From assembly GCA_016196885.1 (NCBI GenBank), contig JACPWU010000021.1, positions 3,618-67,617 on the forward strand: a stretch of 64,000 nucleotides of DNA, written 5' to 3'. The notes beneath the pieces were generated by a model. That model was not told the DNA's origin, did not search any database, and was given only the letters and a program-made list of their open reading frames with translations. This document shows positions 18,811-39,762 of this stretch, one piece after another; positions within the stretch are counted from its first letter, which is position 1; each line of letters starts with the position of its first letter. The position numbers and the translations under genes are program-made. This DNA comes from Chlamydiota bacterium. GTDB lineage: Bacteria; Auribacterota; JACPWU01.

Positions 18811-18881
18811 TGCCCGGTGGTGTAATGGTAACACAGCAGTTTTTGGAGCTGCTTTTCTAGGTTCGAATCCTAGCCGGGCAG
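18811..18881 (+). tRNA. tRNA-Gln (anticodon UUG)
   Basis: Hand-folded cloverleaf: acceptor tgcccgg/ccgggca with U1-A72 typical of tRNA-Gln, D-stem gtgt/acac, anticodon stem gcagt/gctgc with loop ttTTGga, T-arm ctagg-ttcgaat-cctag. Confidence 0.8.
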
Positions 18882-19033: not shown

Positions 19034-19420
19034 TTAACCCTTCTTTCTTTCCGCTTCGTAGGCCTCTAACACCTTTGTTTGAATGTAATCTCTGGCTTCG
19101 ACGGTGATGGGATGTGCAATGTCTCTATGATCTTCCTTGCGATCCTCGTCTTCTGAATGACCTTTCTCTGAAAGAGAGTGCTCGGGCAATTTCGCCCCGC
19201 ACTGCGAACAAAACTTGCTCCGAACGGGCACTTTTTTATGACATTTCAGGCAGGGTTCCTTCATTTTCACACTGGGCATCGCAACAAATAAACCCTTTTT
19301 TCCCTCAATGATTTTTAAATCCCTGACCACAAACATGTCATCAAAGGTGAGGGTGACAAAAGCTTTCAATTTATTGTCTTCGGACTGCGTGAGATGAACT
19401 TTGACCTGTGTGATTTGCAT
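19034..19420 (-). CDS. spoVG: SpoVG-family protein with an inserted CxxC-X11-CxxC zinc-ribbon segment
   Basis: MQITQVKVHL...DMFVVRDLKIIEGKKGLFVAMPS...RDIAHPIT matches SpoVG; about 40 extra residues (EPCLKCHKKVPVRSKFCSQCGAKLPEH...) sit between the AMPS and RDIAHPI blocks. Confidence 0.7.
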   Translation of the reverse strand: MQITQVKVHLTQSEDNKLKAFVTLTFDDMFVVRDLKIIEGKKGLFVAMPSVKMKEPCLKCHKKVPVRSKFCSQCGAKLPEHSLSEKGHSEDEDRKEDHRDIAHPITVEARDYIQTKVLEAYEAERKKG

Positions 19421-19430
19421 CGTCCTCACC

Positions 19431-20300
19431 TCATCTTCCAACTCGCGTCTCGCACACACATGTCCAACACTCAGGAAACTCGCTCTGAATGATCTTTCGA
19501 ATCTCGCAAGCGCTAGTTTGAGAAGGGGCCAGGCCAAAAAGGGTGGGACCACTACCTGAAAGAAGCGACCCCACAGCCCCTGCTCTTCTCAACATCTCTT
19601 TCATCGAAACGAGTGGAGGAAATTTCTTTAAAACCACATCCTCTAAACGATTCAAAAGGTTGCTTGCAAGGTCCCCAAGACGCCCTTCCTTGAGCGCTCC
19701 AAGTACTATTTTAAGATCACCGGCGCCTTGAGTCAAGGTCAAATTCAATTTCCCATAAACCTCAGGCGTGGGAACTTTAAATCGGGGATTGACCAACACC
19801 AGAGAAAAAGGTTTTACCCCTTTTACTTCTTCCAAAATATCCCCGATGCCTCTTCCCAAGGCGGTACCCCCCGTGAGAAAAAAAGGGACATCGGCACCCA
19901 AGGATTGTGCGATTTGAAAACTTTTCTCGGGCGGTAAGCGCATTTGAAAAAGCCGCTCAAGACCCTGGAGCGTCCAAGCCGCATTGCTCGAGCCCCCGCC
20001 CAGTCCTGCGGCCACGGGAATATTTTTTTGGATTCGGATGCGTACCCCCTTTTTGATTTTGGACGCTTCAAAAAAGGCCTGGGCCGCTGAAAAGGCCAAA
20101 TTGCTAGGGCCCCTCGGAATGTCTGGATTCTCAGAAACAATCTCAATACCGGAAGAGATTTTTTCTAAAAAAATTTCATCCGCAAGCGTGATTTCTTGAA
20201 ACACCGTTTCAATATCGTGATAGCCATCTTCCCTTTTGCGAAGCACCTCTAAATAGAGATTCACCTTGGCGGGAGAAAGAATAGCAATGGAATCACTCAT
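19431..20300 (-). CDS. ispE: 4-diphosphocytidyl-2-C-methyl-D-erythritol kinase
   Basis: GHMP kinase motif PVAAGLGGGSSNAAW; 289 aa. Confidence 0.8.
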   Translation of the reverse strand: MSDSIAILSPAKVNLYLEVLRKREDGYHDIETVFQEITLADEIFLEKISSGIEIVSENPDIPRGPSNLAFSAAQAFFEASKIKKGVRIRIQKNIPVAAGLGGGSSNAAWTLQGLERLFQMRLPPEKSFQIAQSLGADVPFFLTGGTALGRGIGDILEEVKGVKPFSLVLVNPRFKVPTPEVYGKLNLTLTQGAGDLKIVLGALKEGRLGDLASNLLNRLEDVVLKKFPPLVSMKEMLRRAGAVGSLLSGSGPTLFGLAPSQTSACEIRKIIQSEFPECWTCVCETRVGR

Positions 20301-20418
20301 GATGCGTCGCCCTTCATTTTATTTTTTCAATCTCTTTGACCTTGTTTCTCAATTTTTCATTCGCCTTACAATTGTTTCCGGGCTGCTCACCCCCTGGAGG
20401 AGGTGAACAGCCTGTCCG

Positions 20419-20455
20419 AAAAAAAGCCCCTGCTCATTTTAAGATAAGCAGGGGC
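20419..20455 (-). terminator. Rho-independent terminator (stem gcccctgct/agcaggggc plus U-run) after the small basic-protein gene
   Basis: 9-bp GC-rich stem with 12-nt loop, followed on the minus strand by 7 U. Confidence 0.6.
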
Positions 20456-20478
20456 TCAAAAAAACGAAGAAAGACCCA

Positions 20479-20565
20479 TTACTTCTTATGACGATCCCTT
20501 CGACTTCTTTTCTTTCTTTTGTGCTTATTCATCTTTGCTTTTCTTTTCTTGCGACCGCAAGGCAT
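20479..20565 (-). CDS. 28-aa highly basic protein, bS22/DUF1713-like (MPCGRKKRKAKMNKHKRKKRSRRDRHKK); not in the ORF track
   Basis: AAGGAG SD 6 nt upstream of ATG; intrinsic terminator 25 nt downstream; KRKxKMxKHKRKKR pattern resembles bacterial bS22 / mitochondrial mS38 C-terminal domains. Confidence 0.45.
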   Translation of the reverse strand: MPCGRKKRKAKMNKHKRKKRSRRDRHKK

Positions 20566-20586
20566 GATTTTCTCCTTTTTAAGCTT

Positions 20587-20662
20587 TTGAACTTTGTATT
20601 GAATAAGATCCTTCGCTCTCACTCAGGATGACACCCCGTGTCCCCCTTGAACCTTCCTTTGG
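20587..20662. repeat. Leader repeat D1 (5' of the bS22-like small gene, 3' of hisG)
   Basis: ttgaac(t)tt(g)tattgaat(a/g)agatccttcgct(c)tcac(t/c)caggatgacacc(c/t)cgtgtc...ctttcc; contains GACAC-N3-GTGTC palindrome. Confidence 0.55.
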
Positions 20663-21532
20663 TTAATATATCACCTTGTTCAGCGGATATTCAATAATTC
20701 CTTCAGCCCCTTGAGACTTTAACTTTGGAATCAGTTCGCGAACGATCTTTTCATCCACAATGGTTTCAACGGCTACCCATCCCTCTTGATTCAATTTGGA
20801 AATCGTCGGTTGACGAAGAGCGGGTAAAAGCGCCACCACCGCCTGCAGTTGATGATCGGGAACATTCATTTTCACACCGACTTTTTCCTCCGCCATCAAA
20901 GCCCCTTTTAAAAGAAGGGCCAGATTTTCAATTTTCTTCTTTTTCCAAGAATCTTCCCAAGCCTTTTTATTGGCGATCACGCGAGTCGTGGATTCCAAAA
21001 CCGTTTCAATGATGCGCAGATGATTGGCCCTGAGGCTCGATCCTGTTTCTGTGATTTCACAAATGGCATCCACCAATTCTGGGACCTTAATTTCTGTGGC
21101 CCCCCATGAAAATTCCACCTCTGCCTTGACACCCCGTTTCTTGAGAAAGGCCTTTGTAAGATTGACACCTTCTGTGGCTATTCTTTTCCCCTCCAAATCT
21201 TCCACCTTCTGAAATTTAGAATCATTGTGAACCGCGATCACCCACCTGACAGGGCGCAAACCTTGTTTGGCATAAATCAAATCGCAAACCTCATGCACAT
21301 CCGAACCATTCTCGACAATCCAGTCCTTGCCCGTGAGTCCCAAATCTAAAACGCCGGACTCTACGTAGCGAGACATCTCCTGAGCCCGAATTAAAATGGC
21401 CTCTATTTCATTGTCATTCACGGAAGGCTTGTAAGACCGCTCCCCCACACGAATGTCGTAGCCCGCCTTTTTAAAAAGGGTGAACGTGGATTCTTGGAGG
21501 CTTCCCTTGGGTAAACCTAACCTCAGCTTCAT
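20663..21532 (-). CDS. hisG: ATP phosphoribosyltransferase (long form with C-terminal regulatory domain)
   Basis: 289 aa; [13 protein letters not shown]-terminus and HisG catalytic plus C-terminal domains. Confidence 0.8.
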
Positions 21533-21547: not shown

Positions 21548-21618
21548 TTGAACCTTTATTGAATGAGATCCTTCGCTTCACCCAGGATGACACCTCGTGT
21601 CACCTTTAAACTTTCTTT
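21548..21618. repeat. Leader repeat D2 (immediately 5' of hisG); A1 inserted at its distal end
   Basis: About 80 percent identical to D1; TGACAC-ctc-GTGTCA inverted repeat about 60 nt upstream of the hisG ATG. Confidence 0.55.
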
Positions 21619-21751
21619 TAGGCATATGCACTTGATTCCCCTCAGATAGAAAGAATTTGTAGTCGCCCCATTTATGGGGCAGCCTTGTGCCCCTTGCATG
21701 GATTGCCCGATGAATCGGGCGACTACTAGGGGAATCAAGTGCATATGCCTA
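21619..21751. mobile_element. MITE family A, copy A1 (133 bp; TIR TAGGCATATGCACTTGATTCCCCT; 8-bp TSD ctttcttt)
   Basis: Imperfect palindrome with terminal inverted repeats and two internal hairpin modules (cgcccgattcatcgggcg and gccccatttatggggc); flanked by identical 8-bp direct repeats. Confidence 0.75.
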
Positions 21752-39639: not shown

Positions 39640-39762
39640 AGGTGATATAGATATTCTCTGATAAGGGCAAACTATCCGTAAGGATAGGACGCAAAGCCAT
39701 GGGCCCCTGGGTAGCTAGGGAGGGGGGTCGCCAGGTTGCCGGAGCATAGGCTGAAGAGTCAA
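39640..39762 (+). promoter_or_regulatory. Candidate c-di-GMP-I (GEMM) riboswitch aptamer
   Basis: GGGCAAAC, then 5-bp stem with GUAA (GNRA) tetraloop, then GGACGCAAAGCC, then a second GC-rich hairpin. The junction strings and stem length match the Vibrio cholerae Vc2 aptamer as recalled from memory. Confidence 0.6.

Follow-up and report, generated by a model that had tools for sequence, protein, structure and literature searches.

A 28-Codon Gene Downstream of hisG in a Chlamydiota Bacterium, Very Probably Encoding the Ribosomal Protein bS22

Introduction

Does the spacer between hisG and ispE in the genome of a Chlamydiota bacterium contain a gene, and if it does, what does the gene encode? 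The question arose from an initial annotation of a 64,000-nucleotide stretch of DNA (here called the window), made from the letters alone, in which a very short and very basic reading frame on the minus strand was proposed to be an unannotated gene for a relative of the ribosomal protein bS22. Solved ribosomes of Mycobacterium, Flavobacterium and Borrelia contain bS22 [PMC10618245; PMC7797042; PMC10081302]. The protein is buried in a pocket of the 30S subunit made up of helices h2, h27, h44 and h45 of 16S rRNA [PMC10618245; PMC7797042]. It contacts 23S rRNA at the subunit interface, via H68 in Borrelia [PMC10618245] and via H70 in Flavobacterium, where bS22 sits between h44 and h45 and touches the 50S subunit [PMC7797042]. 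The paper on the Borrelia ribosome predicted that further bacteria have bS22 which is unannotated [PMC10618245].

The reading frame in the window (20565..20479, minus strand) is very probably the gene for bS22. As such, it is an ordinary ribosomal protein gene of a known family.

The Reading Frame and Its Signals

The order of genes on the minus strand is purN, an nth-like gene, hisG, the bS22 reading frame, ispE, spoVG and glmU. The features of the region are collected in Table 1. The start codon, the AAGGAG ahead of it and the stop codon were all found in the sequence as they had been initially described. Of the encoded residues, 17 of 28 are lysine or arginine (61%). The intrinsic terminator that had been described downstream is also present, but the distance given for it (25 nt) has to be corrected, as the hairpin begins 21 nt past the stop codon. 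The hairpin, GAGCCCCTGCTTATC/TTAAAA/TGAGCAGGGGCTT, is followed by the T-run; half of the pairs (7 of 14) are G-C, and the fold has an energy of -26 kcal/mol (z = -4.7), with 0 of 200 shuffled sequences equally stable.

Table 1. Coordinates of the bS22 reading frame, its signals and other features of the window
Feature	Position	Strand	Remarks
bS22 coding sequence	20479..20565	-	28 codons plus TAA; encodes MPCGRKKRKAKMNKHKRKKRSRRDRHKK; ATG 20565..20563 and stop 20481..20479 read directly from 20300..20800
Shine-Dalgarno sequence AAGGAG	20572..20577	-	6 nt 5' of the ATG; read directly
Intrinsic terminator	20419..20457	-	14-bp hairpin 20457..20424 overlapping a run of 7 T, 20425..20419; terminator scan
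Candidate sigma-70-like promoter (weak)	20665..20694	-	TTGAAT, 18 nt, TG-TATATT; inside the 3' end of hisG
Lineage-specific repeat, about 64 nt	20597..20660	-	5' spacer between hisG and the Shine-Dalgarno sequence; not part of the conserved gene
Second copy of the repeat	21557..21619	-	upstream of hisG; 83-95% identical
Perfect 24-nt inverted repeat	21619-21642 / 21728-21751		between the nth-like gene and hisG; abuts the repeat copy
23-nt inverted repeat	21659-21681 / 21704-21726		nested inside the 24-nt inverted repeat; 87% complementarity
c-di-GMP-I-GGC riboswitch aptamer (RF03167)	39657..39744	+	67.4 bits versus gathering score 59; E 9e-14; full-length
tRNA (RF00005)	18811..18881	+	63.8 bits; between glmU and spoVG, on the opposite strand to its neighbours
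SpoVG homolog	19034..19420	-	L020, 6113..6499; C-terminal zinc-ribbon-like extension CLKCHKK…CSQCG; weak match to Pfam Zn_Ribbon_1

In the list of open reading frames of the window there is a longer reading of 47 amino acids, which starts with GTG (20622..20479). The additional 19 residues at its N-terminus are conserved in none of the relatives described below, so the ATG at 20565 is the start. The extension overlies the lineage-specific repeat, which creates the spurious GTG-started reading, and the 47-residue version was therefore rejected as the true gene. It was also considered whether the repeat itself, which holds two small hairpins (GACACGGGGTGTC and ATCCTGAGTGAGAGCGAAGGAT), might be a regulatory RNA or a conserved leader of the gene. 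This was rejected, because the corresponding spacers of the relatives lack the repeat and a second copy precedes hisG; its appearance is that of a REP- or MITE-like insertion. Similarly, a known RNA family can be set aside for 20419..20662, where a scan of the whole window gave no match to an Rfam covariance model at gathering score. The riboswitch and the tRNA in Table 1 are the only Rfam matches in the window.

Two further observations were made in the vicinity. The nested inverted repeats (21619..21751) may represent a small mobile element or form a structured RNA. The SpoVG homolog with a match to Zn_Ribbon_1 recurs, faintly, in the related locus L028, whereas the loci L023 and L024 carry a faint match to PF12773 (DZR) instead.

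How the reading frame would be transcribed can be stated less firmly. The candidate promoter matches the consensus at 9 of 12 positions, and the region holds 2 such sites versus 2.0 expected by chance; thus, a promoter of its own at 20694..20665 is a possibility suggested by the sequence and not a finding. The terminator scan found no terminator between hisG and the reading frame, which makes transcription together with hisG just as possible.

Conservation in Relatives

A frame of just 28 codons, rich in A and G, might have arisen by chance in a purine-rich spacer, in which case the Shine-Dalgarno sequence would be accidental and the terminator would belong to hisG, after which a terminator is expected anyway; that promoter-like sites occur in the region at chance frequency agrees with such an origin. 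The comparison with other genomes speaks against this. The relatives used were five hisG loci, L024 to L028, of which the HisG proteins are 74-85% identical to that of the window (in descending order, 85, 80, 78, 75 and 74%). In all five, the gap that follows hisG is uncalled and contains an intact bS22-like reading frame. The encoded peptides are MPCGRKKRKSKMNKHKRKKRSRQDRHKK (L024), MPSGRKLRKAKMNKHKRKKRSRRDRHKKKA (L025), MPCGRKRRKAKMNKHKRKKRSRRDRHKRKP (L026) and MGSLKKRRKAKINKHKRRKRMRADRHKK (L027), and the peptide of L028 is identical to that of the window. It had been pointed out at the outset that frameshifts or stop codons in relatives would speak against a gene; the intact frame in five syntenic orthologs speaks for one.

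When the whole spacers were aligned with MAFFT, the reading frame was the sole conserved block: DNA 5' of the Shine-Dalgarno sequence and 3' of the stop codon could not be aligned. A chance frame would hardly be the only conserved island in such a spacer. Within the frame, synonymous changes far exceed nonsynonymous ones. The window differs from L024 by 9 synonymous and 2 nonsynonymous codon changes, from L025 also by 9 and 2, from L028 by 5 and 0, and from L026, the most informative close pair, by 15 and 2. In this last pair, the differences at codon positions 1, 2 and 3 number 7, 2 and 17. The pattern has the signature that would be left by purifying selection on a translated frame. As third-position differences number 5 to 17, the frames of the relatives cannot be assembly copies of one sequence.

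The signals around the frame are also found in most of these relatives. In L024, L025, L026 and L028, an SD-like motif (AAGGAGG, GGGAGG or AAGGAG) lies 6-7 nt 5' of the ATG, and the reading frame is followed by a hairpin and U-tract (z from -3.3 to -7.3), of which the stem sequences differ from one locus to another. In L027, neither an SD-like motif nor a terminator was found at the bS22 reading frame.

Homology to bS22

When all chains in the PDB were searched with the window peptide using phmmer, exactly three sequences were retrieved, each aligned over residues 1-28. These were 8fmw_V, the "30S ribosomal protein bS22" of Borrelia burgdorferi (MPCGRKRKLKKISTHKRKKKRRKNRHKK; E 1.8e-4), which has the identical N-terminal MPCGRK; 7jil_5, the bS22 of Flavobacterium johnsoniae (E 2.5e-3); and 9i5v_10, an "AURKAIP1/COX24 domain-containing protein" (E 0.019). 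Peptides that are very short and compositionally biased give but modest E-values when a single sequence is used. A family HMM was built from 18 peptides, drawn from the GTDB loci described below and the three PDB chains, leaving out the window peptide and its close relatives. Among 1910 six-frame, stop-to-stop segments of the window, this HMM matched only the reading frame under study (41 bits, E 2e-11), the runner-up having an E-value of 0.98. As a control, the peptide was shuffled, keeping the initial methionine and the composition: none of 20,000 shuffled sequences reached the real score of 43.5 bits (maximum 15.8 bits, mean -5.6 bits). As the scores of the shuffled peptides were far below the real score, the match reflects the order of the residues and not the content of lysine and arginine.

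Taken with the conserved island, the excess of synonymous changes and a peptide family that occurs in six phyla or more without change in its length or its ends (see below), the E-value of the HMM and the result of the shuffling make a chance reading frame vanishingly improbable.

Searches of the PDB with profiles (alignments A1 and A3) and by phmmer with the MGSL variant of the peptide (the L027 ortholog, see below) returned the same three chains; mycobacterial bS22 and mS38 were not retrieved. Because mycobacterial bS22 is not retrieved by sequence, the tie to this founding member rests on published structural superpositions. The resemblance that the initial annotation had seen to bS22 of mycobacteria and Bacteroidetes thus divides into two parts. 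It holds for the branch of Bacteroidota and spirochaetes, with PDB chains of which the window peptide aligns over its full length, but was not seen for the mycobacterial protein, the chain of which sequence searches did not return. The resemblance to the domain DUF1713 (PF08213), which had also been proposed, is seen indirectly, through the L027 ortholog, while the window peptide itself scores below the threshold of that model, as described next.

Why the Gene Was Missed

The gene had initially been called unannotated, and this proved to be so. A second metagenome-assembled genome (GCA_016178005.1, contig JACOUD010000001.1) encodes a HisG that is 100% identical to that of the window, and its gene calls include nothing between hisG and ispE; the exact window peptide is absent from about 15 billion proteins, NCBI nr included. 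Nor is this peculiar to the window peptide: 8 of 11 family peptides that were looked up are absent from the same collection, and the bS22 of Borrelia is present there as a PDB chain only. When 5.8 billion protein clusters were queried with the 47-residue reading, there was a single match, an unnamed 29-residue protein (P0137).

The models used for annotation can explain much of this. No family among the NCBIfam models matches the window peptide at E-values up to 10, which fits with the gene being neither named nor called in the GenBank record. The Pfam model PF08213 (COX24_C; DUF1713) matches it weakly, over profile positions 5-27, with 14.7 bits (E 0.028), which is below the gathering threshold of 23 bits. 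However, the verified bS22 chains fare no better: 8FMW and 7JIL give no match to PF08213, and 9I5V gives 12.2 bits. As verified members are equally below the threshold, PF08213 under-covers this branch, and the low score of the window peptide does not exclude it from the family. The syntenic ortholog in L027, which begins with MGSL, scores 25.6 bits and is above the cutoff. We infer that PGAP rescues the MGSL variant by means of the Pfam model, whereas the MPCG variant is both below the threshold of that model and below the length limits of gene callers. The sole match to P0137 and the absence of 8 of the 11 peptides both fit this explanation. A mildly new point is that current models overlook nearly all of the MPCG branch, broad as it is.

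Distribution and Signature of the Family

GTDB representative genomes were scanned with a pattern and by tblastn using a four-sequence alignment (A1). At least 19 further loci were confirmed among the 600 pattern matches listed. As the genome of the window is not among the loci listed, these sample the phylogenetic spread and do not amount to a census of it. The loci listed are from Marinimicrobia/Fidelibacterota, Flavobacteriia, Saprospiraceae, Treponema, Sphaerochaeta, Fibrobacterota and Verrucomicrobiota. Extended to the stop codon, their peptides are 29-31 residues long, start with M(P/G)(C/S)(G/L)(K/R)K and end with NRHK(K/S)K. When 21 members of 28-33 residues, which represent six phyla or more, were aligned, the invariant residues were M1, K6, K11, H15-K16-R17, K19 and R25-H26-K27.

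In three spirochaete loci (L012, L013 and L015, from Treponema, Sphaerochaeta and Spirochaetales), the bS22 reading frame has a GTG start codon, which agrees with the non-canonical GUG reported for bb0822 of Borrelia [PMC10618245].

A much wider reading can be put forward tentatively, although it is at present rather doubtful: bS22 of the MPCG/MPSG type could be a near-universal, almost wholly unannotated component of the ribosome across a large block of bacteria. This block may consist of the FCB group, Spirochaetota, Fibrobacterota, Marinimicrobia/Fidelibacterota and the PVC group, rather than bS22 being a curiosity of three lineages. That the protein is nearly unannotated in the block would follow from PF08213 under-covering this branch, together with gene callers passing over reading frames of fewer than 30 codons.

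Linkage to hisG

In all five relatives (L024-L028), tblastn with the window HisG showed that hisG immediately precedes the bS22 reading frame. A sixth case is L017 (5105..6084), from a Verrucomicrobiota metagenome-assembled genome, which had turned up independently via the peptide pattern: its hisG (58% HisG identity) lies directly before bS22, with about 30 nt between them. By contrast, in the FCB-group and spirochaete loci examined, tblastn found no hisG near bS22. As the pair is present in PVC loci and absent from the FCB and spirochaete loci, it is characteristic of the PVC group. The linkage of hisG and bS22 in PVC lineages would be mildly new; in the literature, no paper was found that names bS22 together with Verrucomicrobia. 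Possibly, this coupling makes the dosage of bS22 depend on how strongly hisG, with which histidine biosynthesis begins, is transcribed; if true, this would connect the composition of the ribosome to the supply of PRPP and ATP.

The gene downstream is not constant. It is ispE in the window and in L024, a gene for a TPR protein in L027 and L028, and a gene for a 467-residue protein without a Pfam match in L026. This bears on the possibility that the short frame encodes a cis-regulatory leader peptide, the translation of which controls the hairpin by attenuation and hence the read-through from hisG into ispE. A short reading frame with a strong terminator within 21 nt, situated between two biosynthetic genes, would agree with such a mechanism. 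However, the downstream gene would not be expected to vary among close relatives, nor the sequence of the peptide to be conserved across phyla in unrelated genomic contexts. Furthermore, the peptide has no run of regulatory codons (there are only 2 His), the fold has a single stable terminator and no alternative anti-terminator pairing that overlaps the end of the reading frame, and L027 keeps the frame without the terminator. A leader peptide is thus extremely unlikely, and the bS22 gene remains the preferred reading.

Proposed Role

The product of the bS22 gene would be a highly basic, helical peptide of about 30 residues, translated from its own Shine-Dalgarno sequence and ATG. By homology, it would insert into the pocket of 16S rRNA helices described above, which is close to the decoding centre, and there its lysines and arginines would neutralise the charge of the rRNA backbone, stabilise h44 and h45, and add to an intersubunit bridge. 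Situated just after hisG, the gene makes up a compact unit, which its own intrinsic terminator closes and insulates from ispE. By analogy with the members of known structure, we infer the translation of the peptide, its incorporation into the ribosome, its binding site and its physiological effect.

The physiological effect of bS22 has been studied in Mycobacterium smegmatis, in which the gene is highly expressed but non-essential; its deletion leaves the translation profile unchanged but renders the cells more sensitive to kanamycin and other aminoglycosides, an effect that acts through the contact of Lys-16 with the backbone of h44 [PMC10081302]. The Borrelia gene has been listed as a candidate essential gene [PMC10618245]. 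As the deletion in M. smegmatis has no growth or translation phenotype except for the sensitivity to aminoglycosides [PMC10081302], the core role of the protein is subtle, and it could be argued that the window encodes a true peptide of the bS22 family which acts mainly off the ribosome: as a nucleic-acid-binding peptide, as an antimicrobial-like cationic peptide, or as a conditional component in stress or hibernation. That PVC lineages have kept the gene next to hisG also hints at expression that is linked to conditions. Against this, all of the members for which there are experimental data are stoichiometric, buried components of the 30S subunit, and the invariant residues of the family agree with the members that have been resolved structurally, which makes a role mainly off the ribosome very unlikely.

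The main value of identifying a ribosomal bS22 here is to correct an annotation: the inventory of ribosomal proteins for this metagenome-assembled genome and its relatives is incomplete. Current understanding is not overturned, as the family is established and its PVC-group versions have already been named in GenBank. However, claims that restrict bS22 to Actinobacteria, Bacteroidota and Borrelia are an artefact of gene calling. A dedicated bS22 profile, e.g. the family alignment A3, would recover the missed genes in bulk. As bS22 adjoins the aminoglycoside site in h44, knowing which lineages carry it bears somewhat on the prediction of antibiotic susceptibility, and its distribution also bears on reconstructing the evolution of ribosomal proteins (bS22, mS38 and eL41).

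Comparison with Known Members

The known counterparts include mycobacterial bS22 (MSMEG_0945 / Rv0550B), mitochondrial mS38 (AURKAIP1/Cox24, PF08213) and eukaryotic eL41, which reportedly occupy an equivalent pocket near h44 [PMC10618245; PMC10081302]. These three are rich in lysine and arginine, as is the window peptide, but their sequences resemble its branch too little for phmmer or the family profile to retrieve them. Furthermore, mS38 is much longer, its basic helix being its C-terminal domain only, and eL41 is a single unbent helix.

The "AURKAIP1/COX24 domain-containing proteins" of Verrucomicrobiota (e.g. MBI4026106.1 and HAL05001.1) are from the PVC superphylum, as is the window. MBI4026106.1, which was given this name by PGAP, is the L027 peptide and is 68% identical to the window peptide. 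In L027 and L017, this variant is encoded directly after hisG, as in the window. It differs in having MGSLKK as its N-terminus instead of MPCGRK, and in scoring 25.6 and 18.8 bits with PF08213. Thus, the MGSLKK variant passes or approaches the threshold and is annotated, whereas the variant in the window does not and is not.

The bS22 of Flavobacterium johnsoniae (Fjoh_1533; 7JIL chain 5) and the 9I5V chain have 57% identity to the window peptide over the full length and share its H15-K16-R17-K18-K19 core and its RHKK end. They are 30 residues long and begin with MPSG or MPNG instead of MPCG, and the Bacteroidota genes lack a Shine-Dalgarno sequence, whereas the gene in the window has a canonical AAGGAG.

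The bS22 of Borrelia burgdorferi (bb0822; 8FMW chain V) is 61% identical to the window peptide over the full length. Borrelia belongs to the Spirochaetota and the window to the PVC group, the genomic contexts differ, and the start codon is GUG in the Borrelia gene but AUG in that of the window; the Borrelia protein has been seen in cryo-EM density, whereas that of the window is predicted from sequence. Both proteins have 28 residues, MPCGRK at the N-terminus and NRHKK or DRHKK at the C-terminus, with a content of lysine and arginine of 61%, the value reported for Borrelia bS22 [PMC10618245]; and both genes are unannotated in their own genomes.
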